A stretch of DNA of 64,000 nucleotides from Dokdonia donghaensis DSW-1 (lineage in GTDB: Bacteria > Bacteroidota > Bacteroidia > Flavobacteriales > Flavobacteriaceae). Under the pieces are notes generated by a model, which saw only the letters and a program-made list of their open reading frames with translations, searched no databases and was not told the origin of the DNA. This document shows positions 4,657 through 38,059 of this stretch, piece after piece (the first letter of the stretch is position 1; each line of letters starts with the position of its first letter). Where the stretch lies: assembly GCF_001653755.1 (NCBI RefSeq), contig NZ_CP015125.1, forward strand, positions 3,092,194 through 3,156,193, in the 5' to 3' direction. Both the position numbers and the translations under genes were made by a program.

Positions 4657-4672
4657 CGCTTTCGCGAAAGCG
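4657..4672. repeat. Iterated palindrome copy (CGCTTTCGCGAAAGCG), intergenic, immediately 3' of fabI
   Basis: Perfect 16-bp inverted repeat containing the core GCTTTCGCGAAAGC. Confidence 0.9.
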
Positions 4673-24483: not shown

Positions 24484-24825
24484 ATGAAGATTGAAAACAC
24501 CAAAGCGCAAATGCGAAAAGGCGTGCTAGAATACTGTATCCTCTCTGTATTAAAAGACGAAGATGCATATGTAGCAGAGATCTTAGGCACGCTTAAAGAC
24601 GCCAAGTTGCTGGTGGTAGAGGGTACAATTTACCCGCTTCTCACTAGACTTAAAAACGCTGGTTTACTCAACTATCGCTGGGAAGAATCTACCAGTGGTC
24701 CACCACGTAAATATTATGGACTTACCGAAACGGGTAAGATATTTTTAAAAGAACTCTCAACCACTTGGGATGAGTTACAGACAGCAGTAGCCGTAGTTAC
24801 ATCCACTAAAACCACAAAAAAATGA
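24484..24825 (+). CDS. PadR-family transcriptional regulator
   Basis: Winged HTH GVLEYCILSVLKDEDAYVAEI...GTIYPLLTRLKNAGLL. 113 aa. Confidence 0.85.
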   Translation: MKIENTKAQMRKGVLEYCILSVLKDEDAYVAEILGTLKDAKLLVVEGTIYPLLTRLKNAGLLNYRWEESTSGPPRKYYGLTETGKIFLKELSTTWDELQTAVAVVTSTKTTKK

Positions 24826-26618
24826 ACAAGACAGTTAATATAAATTTAGCAGGAGTATTTTTTCATATAGATGAGGATGCTTACGGTAAATTACAGAGAT
24901 ATCTCGCTGCCATCAAACGTTCTTTTGAAGGTATGCAAGGTGAAGATGAAATTATAGCAGATATAGAAGCTCGTATCTCTGAGCTATTTTCTGAGCGTAT
25001 TAAAGACGAGCGCCAGGTAATAGGCTCACAAGAGCTAGACGAGGTGATTGCTGTAATGGGACAACCAGAAGACTATATGGTAGATGACGATATTTTTGAA
25101 GATGAGCCTGCAGCTAGCAGCAACTCCTCAAAAAAGTCAAAACAAGCACCACGTATCGCACAACGCCGTTTTTACAGAGATACAGATAACGCTTACATAG
25201 GCGGTGTATCTAGCGGTATGGGGCACTATCTGGGTATAGATCCTTTATGGGTACGTATAGGCTGGGTGTTACTTATAGCGCTTACTTGGTTTACACTAGG
25301 AGGTACTGCACTTATCTATCTTGCCCTATGGGTTTTTGTGCCAGAGGCACAAACCACGGCAGATAAACTCGCAATGCGGGGAAAGGCAGTTAACATTGAC
25401 AATATCACAGAAAAAGTAAAAGAAGGATTTGAAAATGTGGCTGACACCGTAAAGAGTGTAGATTATGATAAGTATGGCAATAAAGTAAAAACAGGAGCTC
25501 AAGGTTTTTTCGGGACCATTGGTAAGATTATTATGTTTTTCTTTAAAGTCCTTGCAAAGATTATAGGGGTACTCCTTATTATAACTGGAGCTACCGTAGT
25601 TATCTCATTACTTATCACCTTCTTAACTGGTGGTGTAGTAGATATTTTCACCCCTAATCTAGCCGATTTACCGTGGGTAAATAATGAGACAGGACTGCCT
25701 ATCTGGCTTGTACTTCTTCTCACGTTATTTGCAGTTGGAATACCTTTCTTCTTCCTATTTTATTTAGGACTTAAGATTGTTTCTTCTAACTTAAAATCTA
25801 TGCCGGTGAGTGCAAAGCTTAGCCTCTTTGGTCTATGGCTTGTCTCTGCGATAGTAATAGGCGTATTTTCTGTAAAAGAAGCTATTAAGTATTCTAACAC
25901 AGAAACTGGTAAAGTAGTAGAGCGCACAGAGCTTGCGATAACGGCAAGTGACACGCTGCGCATACAGATGCGAGAGAGTGATCGTTATGAGATTCCTTTT
26001 GGGCGATCTACTGGATTTATGAGGACAATTAAGAGTGATACAGAAAATGTGACTATAGAGCGTGACGTACGTCTTATTGTGAGAAGTACTAAAGATAGTA
26101 ATGGCTACATCCAGATAGAAAAACGAGCAGATAACTTCACGTATGAAGAAGCACGTGAGCTAGCCTCATCTATACAGTATGATTTTAAACTAGAAGACGG
26201 TGTTTTATCACTAGATGGCTTTCTTACCTCACCTACTCAAAAATCATATGGCCACTGGAATGATCGCGAGGTACAAGTGATTGTATACCTTCCAGAAGGA
26301 ACTACCCTCATTGCAGATGATAATACGTACTCATACCACCGCAATGATAGTAGATACCGTGACATACTAGATAATGGAACAGAAGAGCAATACCTTACCG
26401 TGGGTAATGGCAAGCTTCTTTGTGACGGCTGTCCAGAAGATCGCAGTTATGATTACAATGATGATGATAACTCTTGGGAGCAATCTGGTAATGATTCTTG
26501 GGAAGAACGCAGTTATGAAGAAGGAGAAAATGCTCCAGAATGGGATCGTGAGCCAGAAGCACCCCAAGCTCCTACACCACCAGACACTCCTGACACAGAC
26601 GTGCTACGAAATAACTAA
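24822..26618 (+). CDS. PspC-domain membrane protein (stress-responsive, PadR-coupled)
   Basis: PspC domain RRFYRDTDNAYIGGVSSGMGHYLGIDPLWVRIGWVLL followed by TM helices and a large C-terminal domain. 4-nt overlap with padR. Confidence 0.8.
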   Translation: MNKTVNINLAGVFFHIDEDAYGKLQRYLAAIKRSFEGMQGEDEIIADIEARISELFSERIKDERQVIGSQELDEVIAVMGQPEDYMVDDDIFEDEPAASSNSSKKSKQAPRIAQRRFYRDTDNAYIGGVSSGMGHYLGIDPLWVRIGWVLLIALTWFTLGGTALIYLALWVFVPEAQTTADKLAMRGKAVNIDNITEKVKEGFENVADTVKSVDYDKYGNKVKTGAQGFFGTIGKIIMFFFKVLAKIIGVLLIITGATVVISLLITFLTGGVVDIFTPNLADLPWVNNETGLPIWLVLLLTLFAVGIPFFFLFYLGLKIVSSNLKSMPVSAKLSLFGLWLVSAIVIGVFSVKEAIKYSNTETGKVVERTELAITASDTLRIQMRESDRYEIPFGRSTGFMRTIKSDTENVTIERDVRLIVRSTKDSNGYIQIEKRADNFTYEEARELASSIQYDFKLEDGVLSLDGFLTSPTQKSYGHWNDREVQVIVYLPEGTTLIADDNTYSYHRNDSRYRDILDNGTEEQYLTVGNGKLLCDGCPEDRSYDYNDDDNSWEQSGNDSWEERSYEEGENAPEWDREPEAPQAPTPPDTPDTDVLRNN

Positions 26619-28028: not shown

Positions 28029-28784
28029 TTATAATCCAGCCTTTATTTTCATAAACTGGGCTTCTAGCAGTGCCATCTTTTCTTCTAGTCCATCTGCCAG
28101 TTCTGGCACTCTGTGATAGAAGACGTAGCGTATGCGCCAGAGTTCTTTAATTTCTTTTATAGGAAACTCTAGGTCGTCTATATTTTTATGATCTGCTCTT
28201 AGGGTAATAGTATTTCCAGAGAGATAGCAACGTCTTAATACTAGTCTATCATTAAAAACGGCTAGAATGAGATGTCCATTATTGAGCTTTTTATAAACGT
28301 TTTTTGGGATGTGCTCACCTATTACTATATCTTTTGGGAAGAGTCCTTTGTCATTACTACTCATCTCCAAGTTATCTACCGTAAAGGCTCTGAAATCTTT
28401 TTCTGGATTTACGGGTAGTTGTAACACAGGCATATCTGCTACAAAAGCTTCCCTGTCATTATATAATAGATAGTCATTTGTGTTTTTTGGTGTGATGCAA
28501 GGTATTGTAGCAAAGGTTTCCTTTGTAATCTGCTCGTGATCTGTAGTAAGGTCTGCTTTAAATTTGAGCAAACTATTTACAGTAAGCTCTTTTGTGAGCA
28601 AGTCATCTATAGGAATGCTAAAATAATTAGCAATTTTAATTATCGTATCTATTTTAGGTTCACTCCTACCCTCCTCATAAGCCCCTAACGTCCCTCTTTT
28701 CAGGTCAAAGAGCTCTGCAAACGACTGCTGACTAAGCGTCTTTACGGTTCTTATTTTTCGAATGTTTTTACCAAAGAATGACAT
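28029..28784 (-). CDS. XRE-family HTH regulator with C-terminal LexA/S24-like domain
   Basis: N-terminal HTH_XRE (IRKIRTVKTLSQQSFAELFDLKRGTLGAYEEGRSEPKIDTIIKIANYF). C-terminal beta-rich domain with a LexA-like LAVFNDRLVLRR segment; the catalytic Ser/Lys dyad was not confidently identified. Confidence 0.65.
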   Translation of the reverse strand: MSFFGKNIRKIRTVKTLSQQSFAELFDLKRGTLGAYEEGRSEPKIDTIIKIANYFSIPIDDLLTKELTVNSLLKFKADLTTDHEQITKETFATIPCITPKNTNDYLLYNDREAFVADMPVLQLPVNPEKDFRAFTVDNLEMSSNDKGLFPKDIVIGEHIPKNVYKKLNNGHLILAVFNDRLVLRRCYLSGNTITLRADHKNIDDLEFPIKEIKELWRIRYVFYHRVPELADGLEEKMALLEAQFMKIKAGL

Positions 28785-29020: not shown

Positions 29021-29446
29021 ATGTATTGGAACACAACATTGACACTCTTTATGAAGAACCACTTTACAATTATTCGAGATTTTTTATTAGAACTCAACTT
29101 TAATATCACTACAGAAAATACGGCAGATGGTATTATGGTTGTACAGAAGGAAAACTCAGGTATCAAAAACCTAATTCTGGGCATTGCTCCTCCTATTCTA
29201 ATTATCGAGCAATTTATTTTTACCATCAATAACCAGTCAGAAAAGATTTTTAAAAGTCTGCTGCAAAAAAACCGAGATATCATACACGGCGCTTTTGTAC
29301 TAGATGATACTGGTAAAAAGGTCATCTTTAGAGATACCCTACAGATAGAAAATCTTGACCTCAACGAGCTAGAGGGTAGCTTGAACTCCCTGAGTTTACT
29401 TATGAGTGAGTACTCAGAACAGATTATAGAATTTTCAAAATATTAA
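29021..29446 (+). CDS. YbjN-like (T3SS-chaperone-like fold) protein, PspA-associated
   Basis: About 130-140 aa acidic protein. The segment AFVLDDTGKKVIFRDTLQIENLDLNELEGSLNSL is typical of YbjN-family proteins. The stop is 11 nt before pspA. Alternative start at 29051 (MKNHF). Confidence 0.5.
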   Translation: MYWNTTLTLFMKNHFTIIRDFLLELNFNITTENTADGIMVVQKENSGIKNLILGIAPPILIIEQFIFTINNQSEKIFKSLLQKNRDIIHGAFVLDDTGKKVIFRDTLQIENLDLNELEGSLNSLSLLMSEYSEQIIEFSKY

Positions 29447-29457
29447 AAAACGACATT

Positions 29458-30171
29458 ATGAACATATTTAAACGACTTTTTAAAATAGGACAAGCAGAGG
29501 CAAATGCATCTATAGATAATATGGAAGATCCTATCAAGATGACAGAGCAAGGCATACGAGATATGAAAGAAGATCTAGCCAAAAGTGTAGAAGCAATGGC
29601 GCAAGTAAAAGCAATGGCCATACGCGCAAAAAACGAGCGTGACGAGCACGATGCAAAAGCAAAAGACTACGAGAGCAAAGCCATCGCTATTCTTAAAAAA
29701 GCACACGCAGGATCTATGGATGCAACAGATGCAGACAGACTAGCAAAAGAAGCCCTTGCCAAAAAAGAAGAAGCACAGTCACACGCCACTCGTGCTGGTG
29801 AGGATACTTCAAAATTTGAAGGGAATGTAGCTCAACTACAAGGTACTATCCAGACTATTAAAGATAACATAAGCAACTGGGAGAACGAGCTTAAAACACT
29901 CAAGGCACGTGTAAAAGTGAGCGATGCTACAAAGAATGTAAACAAGCAAATGGCTGCACTAGATAGTACAGGCACCGTGAGTATGCTAGAACGAATGAAA
30001 GAAAAAGTAGCGCAAGAAGAAGCTCTTGCAGAGGCTTATGGAGACATTGCAGATACTAATAAAAGTATAGATGATGAGATAAACGCTGCTGCAGATACTA
30101 GCGAGGAGAAAGTAGATGACGAGCTTGCAAAACTTAAAGAACAATTAGGGCTAGGTAAAGACAACGCCTAG
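29458..30171 (+). CDS. pspA: PspA/IM30/Vipp1-family protein (ESCRT-III superfamily)
   Basis: MNIFKRLFKIGQAEANASIDNMEDPIKMTEQGIRDMKEDLAKSVEAMAQVKA is the canonical PspA N-terminus. 237 aa, entirely coiled-coil. Confidence 0.85.
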   Translation: MNIFKRLFKIGQAEANASIDNMEDPIKMTEQGIRDMKEDLAKSVEAMAQVKAMAIRAKNERDEHDAKAKDYESKAIAILKKAHAGSMDATDADRLAKEALAKKEEAQSHATRAGEDTSKFEGNVAQLQGTIQTIKDNISNWENELKTLKARVKVSDATKNVNKQMAALDSTGTVSMLERMKEKVAQEEALAEAYGDIADTNKSIDDEINAAADTSEEKVDDELAKLKEQLGLGKDNA

Positions 30172-30199: not shown

Positions 30200-30913
30200 T
30201 TGGACAACTTTATAAATCTCATATTTTCAGAAGTTAATATCATCTTGAGCGTCTTATTGATACTCTTGATCATTTACTGGGTACTTACCTCGGTGAGCGG
30301 TATTGATTTTGACTACGATATGGACATCGACATAGATCTCGATGTAGATGTAGATGCAGATTTTGACATCAACACCGTAGACTCTGGCAGTATGGATTTT
30401 GAAGATGTCTCAAGTGCAGAGGTAGACAGGTCACACGTTGTAAATAAAAGACGTAAACCACTTAAGTGGTGGCAAGTATTTTTAATTTACTTCAACTTTG
30501 TAGGTCTTCCATTTATGTTCACCTTTACGGTATGGGTATTTTTATGGTGGCTTTGTACCCTAGTAACCACAAGTATTACTGGTAGCTATGCAACTAGTTT
30601 TGGTTACATACTTATGTTGAGCTGTATGATCCCTGCTTTGTTCCTTACTAAGATATTTACCACTCCATTTAAGTCATTTTTTAAAAACTTGAATAAAGAT
30701 GGTGATAAAGCTACAGACTTTCTAGGTCGTGACGCCGTGTTGCTATCTACCATTTCTGGAGATAAAATGGGTAACGCAGAGGTACTAGCAGATGGTAACC
30801 CGATGAGTATTTATGTAAAATCACTAGATGGGTCAGAAATACGCTTTCGCGAAAGCGTACTCATCATCAAACAGTCACCAGATAAAAATTACTTTTTAGT
30901 CAGTAAATATTAA
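30200..30913 (+). CDS. NfeD/YqiJ-like membrane protein (flotillin partner)
   Basis: N-terminal TM helix, acidic D-rich linker (DIDIDLDVDVDADFD), three TM helices and a C-terminal OB-fold-like tail (AEVLADGNPMSIYVKSLDGSEIRFRESVLIIKQ). Immediately precedes the flotillin gene, as yqiJ-yqiK does. Confidence 0.6.
   Translation: MDNFINLIFSEVNIILSVLLILLIIYWVLTSVSGIDFDYDMDIDIDLDVDVDADFDINTVDSGSMDFEDVSSAEVDRSHVVNKRRKPLKWWQVFLIYFNFVGLPFMFTFTVWVFLWWLCTLVTTSITGSYATSFGYILMLSCMIPALFLTKIFTTPFKSFFKNLNKDGDKATDFLGRDAVLLSTISGDKMGNAEVLADGNPMSIYVKSLDGSEIRFRESVLIIKQSPDKNYFLVSKY
30840..30859. repeat. Perfect 20-bp palindrome inside the NfeD-like CDS (frame FRES)
   Basis: TACGCTTTCGCGAAAGCGTA. The protein reads IRFRESVLI. 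Confidence 0.9.
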
Positions 30914-30967: not shown

Positions 30968-33034
30968 ATGGAAAACCTACCATCTATCGCCATCGCCCTC
31001 GTTGTAGGCATTGTGGCACTCATTGTTATTTACTTCCTCATCATTGCGATGTTCTACAAAAAGGTACATCAAGGTCAAGCCTTGGTTCGTACAGGTTTTG
31101 GCGGAACAAAAGTAGCGACAGATAAAGGGCTCTATGTGGTTCCTGTCTTTCACCGGGTAGAAGTAATGGATATTTCTGTAAAGAAAATTCAAATCGAACG
31201 TCTAGCGACCGAAGGTCTTATCTGTAAAGACAATATGCGTGCAGATATCAAGGTAGCCTTCTTTGTGCGTGTAAATAATGAAGTTGAGTACATTAAAAAA
31301 GTGGCGCAAACTATAGGTGTGCAACGTGCATCACGTCAAGAAACACTTGAAGACCTTTTTGAAGCAAAATTTTCTGAAGCGCTTAAAACCGTGGGTAAAA
31401 AGTTTGACTTTATACAGCTTTATGAGGCTCGTCGTGAGTTTCGCGATGAGATTGTAGACATTATAGGTACAGATCTTAATGGGTATACTCTTGAAGATTG
31501 TGCGATAGATTACCTAGAGCAAACTGCAGTCACACATCTTAAGGCAGATAACATACTTGATGCAGAAGGTATTAAGAAAATCACAGATCTTACAGCTGCA
31601 CAAAACATCAAAGCAAACCTTATTAAACGTGATGAGGAGAAAGTTATACGCAAGCAAGATGTAGAGGCTCGCGAGGCGATACTAGAACTAGATAAGCAAC
31701 TCGCCGAAAAAGAAGAACAGCAAAAACGTGAGATCTCAAACATAAAATCTCGTGAAGAGGCAGAGATTCTTAAAGTTGCCGAAGAAGAGCGTCTCAAGTC
31801 TGAAACCGCTCGCATTGCTACCGAAGAAAAAGTAAAAGTAGCCGAAGAGAATATGCAACGCCAGATCATCGTAGCTGAGAAAAACAAGCAACGTACAGAC
31901 AAGGTGGAGACAGAGCGTGTGGAGAAAGACCGTATGCTAGAACTTACCGAGAGAGAGCGCGTAGTGACACTAGCTCAAATTGAAAAAGAAAAAGTTGTTG
32001 AAGTTGAGAAAAAGAACATTCAAGATGTGATACGCGACCGCGTAATGCTCGAGAAAGGTGTGGTAGAGGAGCAAGAAAATATGAAAGATATTGAGGCTTT
32101 TAAAACTGCAGACCGTTCTAAGCAAGTAGCAATCACAAATGCAGAGGCAGCGGCTCAAGAAGATCTTATTAAGACCATAAAAGCAGCCGAAGCATCAAAA
32201 GAAGCAGCAAAACAAAAAGCCGAAGAGATTAATATCGAAGCACTAGCGCATAAGGAAGCAAGTGAAAAAGAAGCAGAAGCACGTAAAATTCTTGCCGAAG
32301 CACAAGCTAAGGAAGAAGCAACCGTGGGTATGTCTGAGGCACAAGTAATGCACGCTAAGGCAGATGCAAATGAGCGTCAAGGTATTGTTGAGGCAACCGT
32401 TATCGAGAAAAAGGCACTTGCAGAAGCTGCCGGAATTGAAGCAAAAGCTGAAGCAAAACGTAAGGATGGTCTTGCAGAGGCAGATGTGATTAAAGAAAAA
32501 GCCCTTGCAGATGCTGCAGGTATTGAAGAGAAGGCAAATGCTATGAAGAAACTTGACGGTGTAGGTAAAGAACACGAAGAGTTTAAACTACGTCTTGATA
32601 AAGAACTTCAGGTAGATCTTGCAGAGATTAATATCCAGAAAGATATTGCAGATGCCCAAGCACAGGTTATAGGCGATGCTCTTAAGGCTGCAAATATTGA
32701 TATTGTAGGTGGTGAGACAATGTTCTTTGACCAGATTATAGGGCAAATTACAAAGGCCAAAGGTTATGACAGACTCGTACACCACTCAGAAACGGTAACC
32801 GAAGTAAAAGATGCCATTTTAGGTAGTGATGATGTAAAAGGAAACTTGCTTGAAAAAGTAAAAGAATTTGCAGATAAGTACGGCATCTCTTCTGAAGATC
32901 TTAAAAATGTGACCATTGCAAACTTACTGATGGATTTAAAATCTAAATCTTCAGACAGCAGTGAGCAAACCTTATTCAGCAACCTATTTAACCTTGCAAA
33001 AGGATTAGGATTATCTGATAAGAAACTGAAATAA
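30968..33034 (+). CDS. Flotillin-family SPFH/Band-7 protein (YqiK-like) with long EA-rich coiled-coil
   Basis: N-terminal TM helix. SPFH domain (QALVRTGFGGTKVATDKGLYVVPVFHRVEVMDISVKKIQI...ADIKVAFFVRV). Several hundred residues of E/A/K-rich coiled coil. 688 aa. Confidence 0.85.
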   Translation: MENLPSIAIALVVGIVALIVIYFLIIAMFYKKVHQGQALVRTGFGGTKVATDKGLYVVPVFHRVEVMDISVKKIQIERLATEGLICKDNMRADIKVAFFVRVNNEVEYIKKVAQTIGVQRASRQETLEDLFEAKFSEALKTVGKKFDFIQLYEARREFRDEIVDIIGTDLNGYTLEDCAIDYLEQTAVTHLKADNILDAEGIKKITDLTAAQNIKANLIKRDEEKVIRKQDVEAREAILELDKQLAEKEEQQKREISNIKSREEAEILKVAEEERLKSETARIATEEKVKVAEENMQRQIIVAEKNKQRTDKVETERVEKDRMLELTERERVVTLAQIEKEKVVEVEKKNIQDVIRDRVMLEKGVVEEQENMKDIEAFKTADRSKQVAITNAEAAAQEDLIKTIKAAEASKEAAKQKAEEINIEALAHKEASEKEAEARKILAEAQAKEEATVGMSEAQVMHAKADANERQGIVEATVIEKKALAEAAGIEAKAEAKRKDGLAEADVIKEKALADAAGIEEKANAMKKLDGVGKEHEEFKLRLDKELQVDLAEINIQKDIADAQAQVIGDALKAANIDIVGGETMFFDQIIGQITKAKGYDRLVHHSETVTEVKDAILGSDDVKGNLLEKVKEFADKYGISSEDLKNVTIANLLMDLKSKSSDSSEQTLFSNLFNLAKGLGLSDKKLK

Positions 33035-33090
33035 AACTCAGTAAACAACGGCAGCTTGCACCCAGTGAGATGGCAAGCTGCTGGTTGTTT

Positions 33091-33112
33091 TTACGCTTTC
33101 GCGAAAGCGTAA
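33091..33112. repeat. Perfect 22-bp palindrome TTACGCTTTCGCGAAAGCGTAA, intergenic between flotillin and the giant AAA+ gene
   Basis: Seen directly in the sequence. 57 nt after the flotillin stop and 70 nt before the giant gene start. Confidence 0.9.
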
Positions 33113-33181: not shown

Positions 33182-36100
33182 ATGGCAAACGAAACTCCAG
33201 ATATACAACCTAAAGCAACGCAAACTCTTGACGGCGGCACCTATGAGATTATACAAGGTAGACTGCAAAAACAAAAAACCGACTTACAACAGCGGTTACA
33301 AGAACTTAACGAGGAGCGTAAAAATGTTTTTGGTTCACTAGAAACAAAGCTCATTGCAAATGACCGTATCAATACAGAAAATAACTGTATTGCACGTGAT
33401 ATTGTATCGCTTAAAAACCTGTGTTTGTTTGGCTACAATGTGCATTTTGGACTACGCACAGACATACACCTAGGAGATGTTTTTAGTGCCTATGAGTTTA
33501 AAGACAATCGTTTTGAACCTCGTGATCTTTCACTTTTACAAGACGACACTTTTCTACTAGACTTTGCAAACCTCTACAAGTATTACCGTAATACCATCTT
33601 TTCAAAGTTTGCGATTATAGGTAACTACCTGTATATGGTATTTCAGCTTAGTGATAGTGTTACAGATATTAAAACATTTAAGTGGCTCATAAAAGAAGAT
33701 ACGTTACAGTATGTAGATAACCGTAGTGAGCACGAGTACCGCTTCCCACAGCAACACGATTTTAAGTGGCAAGAGGCTACGCGTGATATGCACCGTTATG
33801 GTGAGCACGCTCACGTATCTATTTTAGATAAGGTGTTTGTAGAGACTATAGGTGGTGATCTTACCATAAAAATAGAAGATAATACAGACCAAGGTAAAGG
33901 AATACTAGATGAGCCGGTAGAGCTTATAGACCAGACACTAGATGACGGTCAGTATCGCTATGCAGATCTGGGCAACCTACTTGCACTAGAGATTAAACCC
34001 TTTCAAGAAGAACCTCGCTATTTTGTATTTAATAACAAACTAAAGGAAGTTCAAAAAATACAGAGTGTAAAGGACACCTGTGTCTTACTTCCAGATGATC
34101 AAGGTATCATTTTCCCAACAGGCTACTACTTACAAACAGGAGAATACAACATTTTTGACAATGCCATCCCAAATGTAAAATTTCAGCAAAAGGTGAGTTC
34201 GCCTAACGGGGAGGACTTTTTATATGTCTTTTACTCGCCAGAAGAGGCGCTGTACAACTTGATGTCATATAATGTGATTACTCAAGAGATAAAAACTCCT
34301 ATTATCTGTAATGGTTTTACCGTATTGCAAGATGGGCAGCTATGCTATTTTAGAACCGAAAATGAGCAAACCAAGCATCACGTGATACAGATCTGGCAAA
34401 CCCCATTTTTAAAGGGTGACTATATGCCTTCTCAGCACGAAGACACCTTGCTTTACAAAATAGGAAATAAGGATATTGTAAAAGCAATGGCAGAGGTTAA
34501 TAGCCTCATCACACTGCTCAACAAAGAAGATAATTACGACGGCCTGTATAGCGATATTGCTAAGTTCTCAAAAGATATACTTGATGCTTACTACTGGCTT
34601 CCAGAAGCAGAAACCAAGCAACTCAACGTACCACTTGCAGAAATAAATGGTGCTGCAAATGCAGCTATAGATGAGTTTCAAAAAGTAGTACAGCTCAAGC
34701 GCAACGCTGCCAAACAGACTAAAGAAGTTGAGACCAAAGCCTCTGAGATTTTTGGCAAAATAAAAAGCACCTCTTTTAAGTCTATTAATGATTTTGTGGC
34801 GCTGCTCACACAGTTGCGATCATTACGTGGAGAGACCATCTCGCTTAATGATATACGGTATGTAGATCCCACTTTCGTAAAAACGCTAGAGGAAGAAATT
34901 GCTGTGCAAACACAAAAAATTTCTGAGAAGTGTGTACAGTTCTTACTAGATGACAAAGCGTTAAAACCGTATCACGATGCCGTAGCCGAAAAGAAACAGG
35001 CGATGGATGGCATCAAGAAAGTAATTGAAGCCAAAAAGCTCGAAGAAGAAGTAAACCAGATTGCAACAGATCTTGAGTTACTTATCGACATTGTTTCAAA
35101 CCTTGATATAGAAGACACCTCCCACTCTACTAAGATAATTGATGATATCTCGCTCATTTTTGCAACTATCAATCAGTTAAAGGCTGGGATTAAGAATAAG
35201 AAAAAATCACTGGGAAGTGCAGAAGCACAAGCCGACTTTGCTGCCCAATTGAAGCTTATTGATCAAAGTATCATAAACTACCTAGATATTGCCACCACGC
35301 CAGAAAAGTGTGATGAGTTCCAGACTAAAATCTCTATCCAGCTAGAAGAGCTAGAAGGAAAGTTTGCAGACTGGGATGAGTTTATCACACTTATTATTGA
35401 AAAGCGCGAGGAAGTGTACGGAGCTTTTGAAGCACGTAAAAACGCACTGATAGAGAAGCGCAATAAAAAGGCAATGGCATTAAAAAATGCCTCAGAACGC
35501 ATTTTAAAAGGCGTACGTAAAAAAGCCGAAAGCTTTAAAACAGCCTCTGAAATAAACGGATACTTTGCCGCAGACCTTATGATTAATAAGGTACGCGATA
35601 TCATACAGCAACTTAAAGAGCAAGAAGATACCGGAAAGGCAGAAGAGATTGAGACTGGACTTAAAACAGCTCGTGAAGATGCGCTGCGCAAGCTCAAAGA
35701 CAAACTAGATCTCTATGAAGATGGAGATACGGTAATACGACTTGGCAAGCATAAATTTGGTGTAAACAAGCAACCGCTTGACCTCACTATTGTGCTCAAA
35801 GACGGCGCGCTTAACTATCACCTCACAGGCACCGATTTTTATCAAGAACTCTCAAACGAGACCCTTCTCGCCTCTCGCGATATCTGGGATCAAGAATTTG
35901 TATCAGAAACTAGCGAGGTGTACCGCAGTGCCTACCTAGCTTATAAATTATTTAATAAACTAGACAAGCACACGCTACTAGAAGCTGGTGATGATGCGCT
36001 ACTTGCGATAGTACAAGAAGAAAGCCGCAATGATTATGCAGAGGGCTATGTAAAAGGTGTGCACGATGTAGACGCGACTAAAATTTTAAAGGTACTCGTA

Positions 36101-38059
36101 CACAAACACAACGAACTAGGACTACTCACCTACGCCCCAGAAATTAGAGCATATGCTCAGTATTTCTGGAACAGCATTGACCCAACTACTCAAAAAACGC
36201 TTAACCAGTCTATAAAGGCTTCGGGAGAGGTGTTGCAGTTTTTTCCAGATGCAAAGGAGTACCAATTTATCGTTGAGACGTTAAGTGAGGAGATACACGC
36301 TTTCGCGAAAGCAGAGTCCCTTTTCTCACCCGATTTAAGTCAGACCATTGCGACCTACATCTTTGATGAGCTTCAAGGTGACACAGAGTTTGTGCGTAGT
36401 AGTGTTGCGGTGCGTTTAAAAGACGCTTTCGCGAAAGCGTTAAAACAACAACAGGCAGATCTTAAGTTTAAGAAAAGTTATGAGTCACTCCCTAGCTTAA
36501 AAGGGAAAGTACAGCTCGTAAAACAGTGGGTGACGGCATTTGTACGCACCCAAGAAAGTCTTACCGATGTGCGCTACGTAGATGAAGTGGTGTGTTTACT
36601 ACTCTTTGAAGATGAGTCGGTTTTAAAAACAAAAGCGGCTTCTCCAAATGAAAAAATCACTGGCTTAAGCGGTGATCACAGCACGATAACCGATGGTGTT
36701 TTCAACTTTAACTACCACGACTTTACGGCAAGGCTCAACTTATTTGTAACAGATCAAGTACCTGCATTTGAAACATTTAAGAAGGCAAAACATACGGTTA
36801 CAGAAGAGTTAAAAGAAGCTTTGAAACTGGACGAATTTAAACCAAGGGTTCTTACATCCTTTGTGCGTAATAAGCTGATTGACCAAGTGTATTTCCCATT
36901 GTTTGGTGATAACCTCGCAAAGCAATTAGGAACCGTGGGTGATAATAAACGTACCGACCGTATGGGTATGTTGCTCCTCATCTCACCACCTGGATACGGA
37001 AAAACCACCCTGATGGAATATATCGCAAACCGTCTAGGACTCGTTTTTGTGAAAATTAACGGCCCAGCGATAGGTCACGAAGTTACGTCTGTAGATCCAG
37101 AAAGTGCTACAAATAGCGCTGCTCGTGAAGAGCTCAAAAAACTCAACGTCGCTTTTGAAATGGGGAATAATGTGATGCTATATCTAGACGATATACAGCA
37201 CTGTAATCCTGAGTTTTTACAAAAATTCATCTCCTTATCTGACGGTACACGTAAGATAGAGGGTGTGTACAACGGGAAGTCAAAAACCTATGACCTACGT
37301 AGCAAGAAATTTTGTGTGATAATGGCGGGTAACCCATATACAGAGAGTGGAGAGAAATTCCGCATACCAGATATGCTTGCAAACAGGGCAGATATTTATA
37401 ACCTGGGAGATATTATAGGAGATACTGAACACCTGTTTAAATTGAGTCTTATTGAGAATTCGCTCACTGCAAATGCGCTATTGCAGCAGTTAAGTAGTAG
37501 TCATTTTGAGGATGTGTATACCTTAATAGACCGCATAGAAAATGGGACGCAAGACAGTCAGCTCAAAGGAAATCACACCGCGCAAGAGGTAGCAGATTAT
37601 ACAAAAGTACTAGAAAAGGTAATCACCATACGTAACACAGTACTTAAGGTTAATGCAGAATACATACGCAGTGCCGCGCAAGAAGATGCCTATCGCACAG
37701 AGCCGTCTTTTAAACTTCAAGGGTCATACCGTGATATGAATAAACTAGTAGCCAAAGTGGTTCCCATTATGAATGACACTGAGCTTGCGACATTGCTCCT
37801 ATCACATTATGAAAGTGAGTCACAAACTCTCACTTCAAGCGCAGAGGCAAACCTCTTAAAATACCGCGAACTCATAAATGCGCTAGATGAAACGCAGCAA
37901 CAGCGCTGGAACACGATGAAAGAAACCTTTGTAAAAAATAATAAACTCAAAGGTTTTGGTGACAAGAACGAGATGGCACAAGTACTCTCTCAAATGATGG
38001 AGTTTACCGAGAATCTAGAAGGGATAAAAAAGGCGCTTGAGAAGGGGTTGGAGAAATGA
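33182..38059 (+). CDS. Giant (1625 aa) protein with a C-terminal AAA+ ATPase module; N-terminal region has no recognisable domains
   Basis: Single uninterrupted ORF. Walker A LLLISPPGYGKTTL (about residue 1260). Walker B VMLYLDDIQH. Sensor-1-like CVIMAGNPY. Arg-finger-like RIPDMLANRADIY, resembling MoxR/dynein/chelatase-type (AAA_5-like) ATPases. The N-terminal 1200 or so residues are partly coiled-coil. Two internal copies of the AFAKA palindrome. Confidence 0.8.
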   Translation: MANETPDIQPKATQTLDGGTYEIIQGRLQKQKTDLQQRLQELNEERKNVFGSLETKLIANDRINTENNCIARDIVSLKNLCLFGYNVHFGLRTDIHLGDVFSAYEFKDNRFEPRDLSLLQDDTFLLDFANLYKYYRNTIFSKFAIIGNYLYMVFQLSDSVTDIKTFKWLIKEDTLQYVDNRSEHEYRFPQQHDFKWQEATRDMHRYGEHAHVSILDKVFVETIGGDLTIKIEDNTDQGKGILDEPVELIDQTLDDGQYRYADLGNLLALEIKPFQEEPRYFVFNNKLKEVQKIQSVKDTCVLLPDDQGIIFPTGYYLQTGEYNIFDNAIPNVKFQQKVSSPNGEDFLYVFYSPEEALYNLMSYNVITQEIKTPIICNGFTVLQDGQLCYFRTENEQTKHHVIQIWQTPFLKGDYMPSQHEDTLLYKIGNKDIVKAMAEVNSLITLLNKEDNYDGLYSDIAKFSKDILDAYYWLPEAETKQLNVPLAEINGAANAAIDEFQKVVQLKRNAAKQTKEVETKASEIFGKIKSTSFKSINDFVALLTQLRSLRGETISLNDIRYVDPTFVKTLEEEIAVQTQKISEKCVQFLLDDKALKPYHDAVAEKKQAMDGIKKVIEAKKLEEEVNQIATDLELLIDIVSNLDIEDTSHSTKIIDDISLIFATINQLKAGIKNKKKSLGSAEAQADFAAQLKLIDQSIINYLDIATTPEKCDEFQTKISIQLEELEGKFADWDEFITLIIEKREEVYGAFEARKNALIEKRNKKAMALKNASERILKGVRKKAESFKTASEINGYFAADLMINKVRDIIQQLKEQEDTGKAEEIETGLKTAREDALRKLKDKLDLYEDGDTVIRLGKHKFGVNKQPLDLTIVLKDGALNYHLTGTDFYQELSNETLLASRDIWDQEFVSETSEVYRSAYLAYKLFNKLDKHTLLEAGDDALLAIVQEESRNDYAEGYVKGVHDVDATKILKVLVHKHNELGLLTYAPEIRAYAQYFWNSIDPTTQKTLNQSIKASGEVLQFFPDAKEYQFIVETLSEEIHAFAKAESLFSPDLSQTIATYIFDELQGDTEFVRSSVAVRLKDAFAKALKQQQADLKFKKSYESLPSLKGKVQLVKQWVTAFVRTQESLTDVRYVDEVVCLLLFEDESVLKTKAASPNEKITGLSGDHSTITDGVFNFNYHDFTARLNLFVTDQVPAFETFKKAKHTVTEELKEALKLDEFKPRVLTSFVRNKLIDQVYFPLFGDNLAKQLGTVGDNKRTDRMGMLLLISPPGYGKTTLMEYIANRLGLVFVKINGPAIGHEVTSVDPESATNSAAREELKKLNVAFEMGNNVMLYLDDIQHCNPEFLQKFISLSDGTRKIEGVYNGKSKTYDLRSKKFCVIMAGNPYTESGEKFRIPDMLANRADIYNLGDIIGDTEHLFKLSLIENSLTANALLQQLSSSHFEDVYTLIDRIENGTQDSQLKGNHTAQEVADYTKVLEKVITIRNTVLKVNAEYIRSAAQEDAYRTEPSFKLQGSYRDMNKLVAKVVPIMNDTELATLLLSHYESESQTLTSSAEANLLKYRELINALDETQQQRWNTMKETFVKNNKLKGFGDKNEMAQVLSQMMEFTENLEGIKKALEKGLEK
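36299..36312. repeat. Iterated palindrome core inside the giant gene (encodes AFAKA)
   Basis: The protein reads HAFAKAESL. Confidence 0.9.
36423..36440. repeat. Iterated palindrome copy inside the giant gene (encodes AFAKA), 124 bp from the previous copy
   Basis: ACGCTTTCGCGAAAGCGT. The protein reads KDAFAKALKQ. Confidence 0.9.

Follow-up and report, generated by a model that had tools for sequence, protein, structure and literature searches.

The giant ATPase gene and its cluster

We analysed a 64,000-nucleotide stretch of the Dokdonia donghaensis DSW-1 genome (assembly GCF_001653755.1, contig NZ_CP015125.1, positions 3,092,194 to 3,156,193 of the forward strand), referred to below as the window and numbered from its first letter. 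On its forward strand the window carries a gene for a giant AAA+ ATPase of 1625 amino acids (33182..38059), the last of a cluster that encodes, in this order, a CesT-like chaperone, PspA, a small membrane protein with three transmembrane segments (3-TM protein), a flotillin and the ATPase. The data presented here suggest that the ATPase module belongs to the structural class of MoxR and dynein and that the protein may remodel the flotillin scaffold encoded beside it.

A previous sequence-only reading had described the open reading frame (ORF) as a fusion of about 1200 domainless residues, rich in coiled coil, with a single C-terminal AAA+ module. The ORF list and the translation confirmed the frame, which begins with ATG, and the feature is far beyond chance. 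The translated protein has a computed mass of 185 kDa and an isoelectric point of 5.2. Hydropathy analysis over its full length detected no transmembrane-like segment (no 19-residue hydrophobic window at or above 1.6), and the ATPase is predicted to be soluble. The G+C fraction along the gene (0.40-0.42) equals that of the rest of the window, with no anomaly in composition. Database entries from Dokdonia matched the protein at 99-100% identity, the exact protein being among them under the NCBI name "DNA repair ATPase". An identity of 70-75% is kept among many Flavobacteriaceae genera, and the homologs of the N-terminal region form 727 clusters at 50% identity. Since the family is catalogued in Pfam and named by NCBI, and since its architecture and operon were published by Ravi et al. 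in a comparative genomics study (mSystems 2024, PMC11237479; preprint 2020), the novelty implied by the sequence-only reading had to be abandoned and the ATPase is to be regarded as already known.

The other members of the cluster lie upstream of the ATPase gene on the same strand. The flotillin (688 amino acids, 30968..33034; Pfam Band_7, expectation value (E) 4.7e-13) consists of a transmembrane-like segment within residues 1-34, the SPFH/Band_7 domain and a coiled coil, and aligns with E. coli YqiK at 30% identity along 473 residues (E 2e-50). The 3-TM protein (237 amino acids, 30200..30913), defined by its translation and hydropathy profile, has three transmembrane-like segments, a loop that is acidic and rich in D, and a soluble domain at its C-terminus. 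By hydropathy, transmembrane-like segments are a property of the flotillin and the 3-TM protein and not of the ATPase. The gene of the 3-TM protein occupies the same position as yqiJ in E. coli and yuaF in B. subtilis; the protein returned no Pfam match and its BLASTP comparison with E. coli YqiJ was not significant, and its assignment to the YqiJ/YuaF type follows Ravi et al. (PMC11237479). Searches of the Protein Data Bank (PDB) with the flotillin and the 3-TM protein gave nothing useful. PspA/IM30, a member of the bacterial ESCRT-III superfamily (237 amino acids, 29458..30171), matched Pfam PspA_IM30 with E 4.7e-45, and the CesT/Tir-like chaperone (141 amino acids, 29021..29446) matched CesT_Tir_1 with E 9.8e-58.

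A divergently oriented regulator gene (28029..28784, reverse strand) precedes the cluster and encodes a helix-turn-helix protein (HTH_3, E 5.8e-11). Its C-terminal domain showed a weak LexA/S24-like match (Peptidase_S24, E 0.007), and the sequence, inspected by eye and unaligned, reads NLEMS and VLRR at the sites expected for the S24 Ser and Lys; this domain may be a non-catalytic S24-like sensor. A gene for a PspC-domain protein of 598 amino acids (PspC, LiaI-LiaF-TM_PspC and Toast-rack; 24822-26618, forward strand) is located 6.6 kb upstream of the ATPase gene. As it sits close upstream of the PspA operon, at 2.4 kb, the region can be described as rich in envelope-stress genes.

The C-terminal AAA+ module

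The AAA+ alpha/beta core is encoded at 36872..37402 (residues 1231-1407). The Walker A motif SPPGYGKTT (36983-37009, with GYGKT at residue 1271), the Walker B motif LYLDDIQH (37178-37201, residue 1333), the sensor-1 motif AGNPY (37325-37339, residue 1382) and the sequence RADIY (37385-37399), whose R1402 is the candidate Arg finger, occur once each, as the sequence-only reading had noted. The whole protein contains one G-x-GK[ST] P-loop, and both Pfam and the structure models returned a single AAA+ module, so that this half of the proposed fusion stood. Conservation was evaluated on 63 full-length homologs, 29-49% identical to the window protein. Residues P1270, G1271, G1273, G1383, P1385 and R1402 are invariant, and K1274, T1275, D1336, D1337 and N1384 are conserved in at least 90% of the sequences, a level shared by much of the segment 1226-1425. 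No other part of the protein is as conserved as the AAA+ block. Because the catalytic motifs are invariant or conserved to at least 90% in this set, they are strongly constrained rather than degenerate, and the module is apparently active. The invariance of R1402, the candidate Arg finger, speaks for an active site formed in an oligomer, and a hexameric motor with large arms is plausible.

An alignment of 74 sequences, consisting of representatives at 50% identity and closer relatives, was used as input for two AlphaFold2 models, covering residues 1-860 and 850-1625. The C-terminal model, with a mean predicted local distance difference test score (pLDDT) of 90.7 and a predicted template modelling score of 0.78, places a helical lid and C-terminal helices after the core (37427..38056, residues 1416-1625). 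Within the lid, the segment YRTEPxFKLQGSYRxMNK is as conserved as the core (block value 0.76 for residues 1501-1525), P1508 and R1517 being invariant and R1505 conserved in at least 90%; it is a candidate sensor-2 region. In the DSSP assignment of the predicted model, a beta-hairpin at residues 1358-1371 occupies the pre-sensor-1 position, after Walker B and before sensor 1; its two strands correspond to residues 509-514 and 517-522 of the model. At the position of the helix-2 insert (residues 1294-1311) a conserved loop was found, in which G1298, S1303, D1305 and P1306 are conserved in at least 90% of the homologs and no hairpin was modelled.

The sequence of the module alone does not discriminate between AAA_5 and AAA, as PF07728 (AAA_5) scored 29.8 bits against a cut-off of 22 and PF00004 (AAA) 32 against 21.2. 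The phmmer matches to p97, Rix7 and RuvB were confined to the Walker A region, the NCBIfam matches to RuvB and Cdc48 were restricted to the same region and below threshold, and a profile of the full family searched against the PDB yielded just AAA matches at the level of Walker A, with E above 1e-3. Structure comparison gave its highest values with the MoxR family proteins CbbQ (16.5) and NorQ (15.1), followed by dynein (15.0) and midasin (14.2), the D2 domains of ClpA and ClpB (13.4-13.1), Lon (12.0), Vps4 (11.4 and 10.6) and McrB (11.1). On the predicted fold, the ATPase module can thus be placed in the MoxR/dynein structural class, to which it is modestly closer than to the Clp D2 domains. 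This assignment agrees with the earlier proposal of an AAA_5-like module of MoxR/dynein type rather than one of the Vps4 or ClpB type.

A split ABC ATPase of the SbcC/Rad50/SMC type was also considered and rejected, as the single P-loop at residue 1271 is followed by Walker B 62 residues further on and the [LFY]SGG signature is absent. The CxxC motif of the SbcC/Rad50 zinc hook occurs nowhere in the ATPase.

The N-terminal region

The first 1200 residues, in which no motif had been recognised by the sequence-only reading, turned out to contain two Pfam families and folded domains over almost their whole length, so that the description as domainless was wrong. DUF3686 (PF12458) covers residues 34-471 (33281..34594) with E 1.5e-178 over the whole profile, and DUF7902 (PF25472) covers residues 592-676 (34955-35209) with E 7.4e-26. 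These regions carry no defined unrelated function, and the domain order DUF3686-DUF7902-AAA+ is the same in five relatives of 1858-2036 amino acids.

In the N-terminal model (mean pLDDT 86.9) residues 1-17 are disordered and are followed by a helix at residues 20-50, about 28 beta-strands within residues 56-406 and two helices at 423-469. Foldseek matched the beta-rich domain to Elp1, prolyl oligopeptidase, CyRPA, Vps18, YncE and the clathrin N-terminal domain. As these beta-propeller matches were modest (E 1e-5 to 1e-3, target-normalised template modelling score at most 0.38), we refer to residues 56-406 as a putative divergent beta-propeller-like domain, which agrees with the "beta-propeller repeats" described by Ravi et al. 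(PMC11237479). Very long helices then extend over residues 482-844 (34625..35713) and are modelled as an arm of spectrin-repeat-like bundles or coiled coil, inside which DUF7902 is located. The fraction of Lys and Glu in this segment is 0.20-0.28, in line with the K/E-rich helical or coiled-coil stretch predicted earlier for residues 480-830.

Residues 851-1214 (35732..36823) gave neither a Pfam match nor a sequence match in the PDB, where a search with the entire segment 1-1200 was equally negative. The C-terminal model, with pLDDT above 90 in this part, shows a small five-stranded beta domain at 851-890, then a domain consisting of helices only (about 915-1143) and a linker that combines two short strands with a long helix. 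In the alignment, the motif G959-x-H961-D962-x-D964-A965 (YVKGVHDVDA; 36053-36076, residues 958-965) is invariant or nearly so among the 63 homologs, and in the model it opens a helix inside the otherwise variable helical domain. This GVHDxDA motif is a possible interaction or catalytic site.

Distribution and gene order in other genomes

In a collection with a single genome for each species, a pattern scan returned at least 587 stretches with a relative confirmed by tblastn. Synteny was counted in the best 80 of these at least 587 loci, in which all ORFs were searched with the window proteins; they represent at least five phyla, with members in Bacteroidota, Planctomycetota, Verrucomicrobiota, Desulfobacterota and Clostridia. 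A flotillin homolog was found upstream of the ATPase gene and on the same strand in 67 of the 80 loci, a very strong link, and a homolog of the 3-TM protein was found upstream of the flotillin gene in 57. Of the 13 loci in which flotillin was missing, the sequence available upstream was shorter than 600 bp in eight and about 1.4 kb long in two. PspA was detected in 31 loci, the CesT-like protein in 29 and the helix-turn-helix regulator in 29, every one of them in Bacteroidota, and the regulator travels with the PspA-containing form of the cluster. The remaining flanking genes of the window, PspC included, did not recur in the 80 loci. Since flotillin and the 3-TM protein span phyla and PspA is confined to Bacteroidota, the conserved core is a triad that comprises the 3-TM protein, the flotillin and the ATPase; PspA and the CesT-like protein join it in Bacteroidota only. 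The ATPase gene is therefore in near-obligate adjacency, in distant phyla, to the genes of a transmembrane SPFH flotillin and of a small 3-TM protein.

These counts extend the description by Ravi et al. (PMC11237479), in which the CesT/Tir-PspA pair is combined with further partners, including a 3-TM protein of YqiJ/YuaF type, shorter flotillin/YqiJ(/ATPase) operons are more widespread, the ATPase is grouped with PspA-associated AAA+ ATPases and roles in sub-membrane dynamics are proposed. The ATPase family described here is the flotillin-linked AAA+ family of that study and nothing essential differs. What we add is the placement of the ATPase in the structural class of MoxR and dynein, the quantified synteny (flotillin 67/80 against PspA 31/80), and the spectrin-like arm, the structurally divergent propeller and the conserved motifs outside the ATPase module.

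The order small protein, SPFH/flotillin-sized protein and ATPase was also observed on the Pseudomonas fluorescens plasmid pQBR103 and on plasmids of Streptomyces and Deinococcus. The AAA+ region of these plasmid relatives is 51-57% identical, and the Deinococcus genes are annotated just as hypothetical proteins. On pQBR103, a 425-kb megaplasmid of strain SBW25 (locus L081, 87115-106326), the triad lies directly 3' of a DUF2491-DUF350-DUF1190-glutathionylspermidine synthase operon (polyamine/ATP-grasp), a polyamine-linked context that Ravi et al. (PMC11237479) described for PspA systems, and a phospholipase D gene is located 8.6 kb downstream of the triad.

In many genomes (loci L001, L003, L004, L015, L035, L045, L047, L063 and others) the flotillin and ATPase genes are separated by 0.5-1.6 kb, and the spacer thus appears to tolerate insertions. 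The inserts are unrelated small genes of heterogeneous nature, which by eye resemble an IS200-type transposase, endonucleases of the GIY-YIG-like and DUF559-like kinds, and lipoproteins, so that no fourth conserved component emerges. In a metagenomic protein of 1345 amino acids (P0139) an NfeD1b_N domain (E 3.4e-15, residues 74-215) precedes DUF3686 and DUF7902, which could be either a fusion of an NfeD-type protein with the ATPase family or an artefact of gene calling.

The flotillin-ATPase spacer and an iterated palindrome

In the window the flotillin and ATPase genes are separated by 147 bp, which contain a terminator-like hairpin (33043-33090) and a copy of a palindrome (33093-33110; both elements 33043..33110, forward strand), as derived from the sequence and from RNA folding. 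The hairpin has a 16-bp stem and a folding energy of -32.1 kcal/mol (z -4.3, none of 200 shuffles equally stable) and is followed by UUUUU. Directly after it, the 18-bp palindrome copy is able to form a second hairpin. The first hairpin looks like a terminator or attenuator, which suggests that the ATPase may be expressed below the level of flotillin.

The palindrome is iterated along the window, where its core TTTCGCGAAA occurs 22 times against 0.07 expected. The core extends to GCTTTCGCGAAAGC in 19 copies, many of which reach the 18-bp perfect palindrome ACGCTTTCGCGAAAGCGT, and it includes an NruI site (TCGCGA). The core sites are located at 4660, 10928, 13060, 14918, 18901, 19722, 21441, 24395, 27120, 30845, 33097, 36301, 36427, 39700, 41130, 44551, 48271, 53051, 54536, 58315, 60977 and 62708. 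Two copies of GCTTTCGCGAAAGC were found inside the ATPase gene at 36299-36312 and 36425-36438, and both read AFAKA, the frame already noticed in the sequence-only reading. The copy at 30845 in the 3-TM gene reads RFRES, so that intragenic copies use at least two reading frames, and the copy at 33097, the one compared with the gene coordinates, is intergenic.

Proposed function and alternative explanations

Because members of the family occur widely, are strongly conserved and have a flotillin gene beside them in almost all cases, the family is the most obvious candidate for an activity that takes apart or reorganises flotillin/SPFH scaffolds and PspA/Vipp1 polymers. We propose, giving the proposal about an even chance, that the ATPase is an oligomeric remodeler of MoxR/dynein class acting on a flotillin/NfeD-like scaffold, with an action extended to PspA in Bacteroidota. 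By analogy with CbbQ and NorQ, the AAA+ modules would form a ring, probably a hexamer, in which the invariant R1402 would act in trans as Arg finger. Six arms with their propellers might dock on the cytoplasmic face of the assembly of flotillin and the 3-TM protein. Hydrolysis of ATP would then pull on the scaffold or reorganise it, with flotillin oligomers being assembled, opened or disassembled, and candidates for pore elements are the conserved loop 1294-1311 and the hairpin 1358-1371. In clusters that also encode PspA, the action might extend to PspA polymers recruited to the scaffold during envelope stress.

Several observations weigh against this proposal. Gene adjacency does not identify the substrate of the ATPase, and the terminator-like hairpin between the two genes means that their co-transcription is not assured. 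Three loci (L032, L044 and L060) extend 7.6 kb or more upstream and show no flotillin gene nearby; when they were searched for an alternative partner, the neighbours proved unrelated. Pfam detected the VWA/MIDAS partner typical of MoxR systems neither in the protein itself nor among ten genes around it, and Walker B reads DD, not DE. Moreover, no experiment on any member of the DUF3686-DUF7902-AAA+ family was found in the open-access or bioRxiv literature.

The ATPase might instead be primarily a bacterial counterpart of Vps4 that disassembles or recycles PspA polymers, with flotillin as a mere recruiting platform. The co-occurrence of PspA and its CesT-like partner in the window cluster and of PspA in 31 of the 80 loci points in this direction, as does the placement of the ATPase among PspA-associated AAA+ ATPases by Ravi et al. 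(PMC11237479). A 2025 review notes that a Vps4-like ATPase appears to be absent in bacteria and that the regulation of PspA polymers is unresolved, and recruitment of PspA by SPFH proteins in B. subtilis is stated in PMC10936438 and PMC8581546. However, PspA is missing near the ATPase in 49 of the 80 loci, including all those outside Bacteroidota, whereas flotillin is nearly universal, and Pfam detected no MIT domain in the ATPase at E values up to 1; we consider this explanation unlikely. The close fold similarity to the MoxR proteins CbbQ and NorQ, the nearest solved structures, together with the AAA_5 match above its cut-off, would also fit a MoxR-type maturation chaperone, for which flotillin would only specify the location and which would insert a cofactor into, or activate, another membrane complex. 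Besides the missing VWA/MIDAS domain, this role is disfavoured by the lack of a conserved client enzyme gene nearby, only flotillin and the 3-TM protein being conserved, and by the heterogeneity of the genes inserted elsewhere between flotillin and ATPase, and it seems to us quite improbable.

Still smaller is the likelihood that we assign to a membrane-based conflict or anti-phage system, in which the SPFH protein and the ATPase would work as an abortive-infection or membrane-repair module. The triad does occur on megaplasmids (pQBR103, Streptomyces, Deinococcus), the flanks of the cluster differ between genera, with flanking genes of the window having no homolog in the 80 loci, and mobile-element genes separate flotillin and ATPase in some genomes. 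This explanation was nevertheless ranked low because the dedicated searches gave nothing specific: PADLOC, run on the ATPase and seven neighbours, returned only generic AAA (E 6e-5) or HTH matches, PHROGs returned one weak generic ATPase match, and no homolog was found in 50,697 phage records. Furthermore, the identity of 70-75% across Flavobacteriaceae genera and an architecture fixed across phyla are unlike fast-diversifying defence genes, and the ATPase gene shows no anomaly in composition. A role in DNA repair, finally, is the one suggested by the names of the family (Pfam DUF3686 "ATPase involved in DNA repair", NCBI "DNA repair ATPase"), by weak RuvB_N matches (E 1e-4) confined to the Walker A region and by the LexA-like S24 domain of the adjacent regulator (E 0.007). 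It is hardly credible, since Pfam returned no nuclease, DNA-binding or other nucleic-acid-related domain, the NCBIfam RuvB score was 22.5 against a cut-off of 282, and the conserved neighbours are all membrane or envelope-stress proteins. The name was presumably spread through a similarity, driven by coiled coil, to COG0419 "ATPase involved in DNA repair".

Returning to the remodeler of the flotillin scaffold, its most far-reaching form is that the family represents the first dedicated ATP-driven "uncoating ATPase" of flotillin/SPFH assemblies and, in Bacteroidota, also a functional analogue of Vps4 for PspA, built as a MoxR/dynein-class ring with propeller-tipped spectrin-like arms and not as a classical AAA protein; we put this forward tentatively and with more doubt than belief. 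The family offers a concrete candidate for the bacterial ATPase that remodels flotillin and PspA assemblies, and the name "DNA repair ATPase", probably a misnomer, hides this lead. The candidate had already been indicated in 2024, and the value of the present analysis lies in a sharper hypothesis, with flotillin first, PspA second and a motor of MoxR/dynein class.

Comparison with known systems

In the MoxR systems, CbbQ/CbbO serves Rubisco and NorQ/NorD serves nitric oxide reductase, by cofactor insertion or activation. The ATPase module is just 14-15% identical in sequence to its structural counterparts, namely CbbQ (6l1q), NorQ (9qh4) and the AAA_5 modules of dynein and midasin, and it differs from the MoxR systems in having no VWA/MIDAS partner or domain, and from the MoxR family in having no Pfam AAA_3 match. 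Compared with the modules of MoxR, dynein and midasin, its Walker B carries DD instead of DE and the helix-2 insert hairpin is not modelled; the 1200-residue N-terminal extension further separates it from CbbQ, NorQ, dynein and midasin.

HflK/C-FtsH and prohibitin-m-AAA are SPFH cages that enclose AAA+ proteases. The cluster resembles these complexes in the pairing of an SPFH scaffold with an AAA+ machine, a pairing that is supported by PMC13220708. In contrast to FtsH and the m-AAA protease, the ATPase shows no match to M41 or any other peptidase and no transmembrane anchor, belongs to a different AAA+ clade and has a flotillin-type partner. The E. coli yqiJ-yqiK and B. subtilis yuaF-floT operons share with the cluster a small multi-transmembrane gene directly upstream of the flotillin gene, whereas the E. 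coli operon has no downstream ATPase gene.

With respect to Vps4 and the classical clade, the ATPase is not a member of the family, as its predicted fold is closer to MoxR and dynein than to Vps4, katanin or p97. It also differs from Vps4 by the absence of an MIT domain and by a PspA linkage limited to 31 of the 80 loci. What it shares with the Vps4/ESCRT-III systems of archaea and eukaryotes is an AAA+ gene placed beside a gene of the ESCRT-III superfamily, here PspA, and by analogy the ATPase could act on a membrane-bound polymer in the manner of Vps4.

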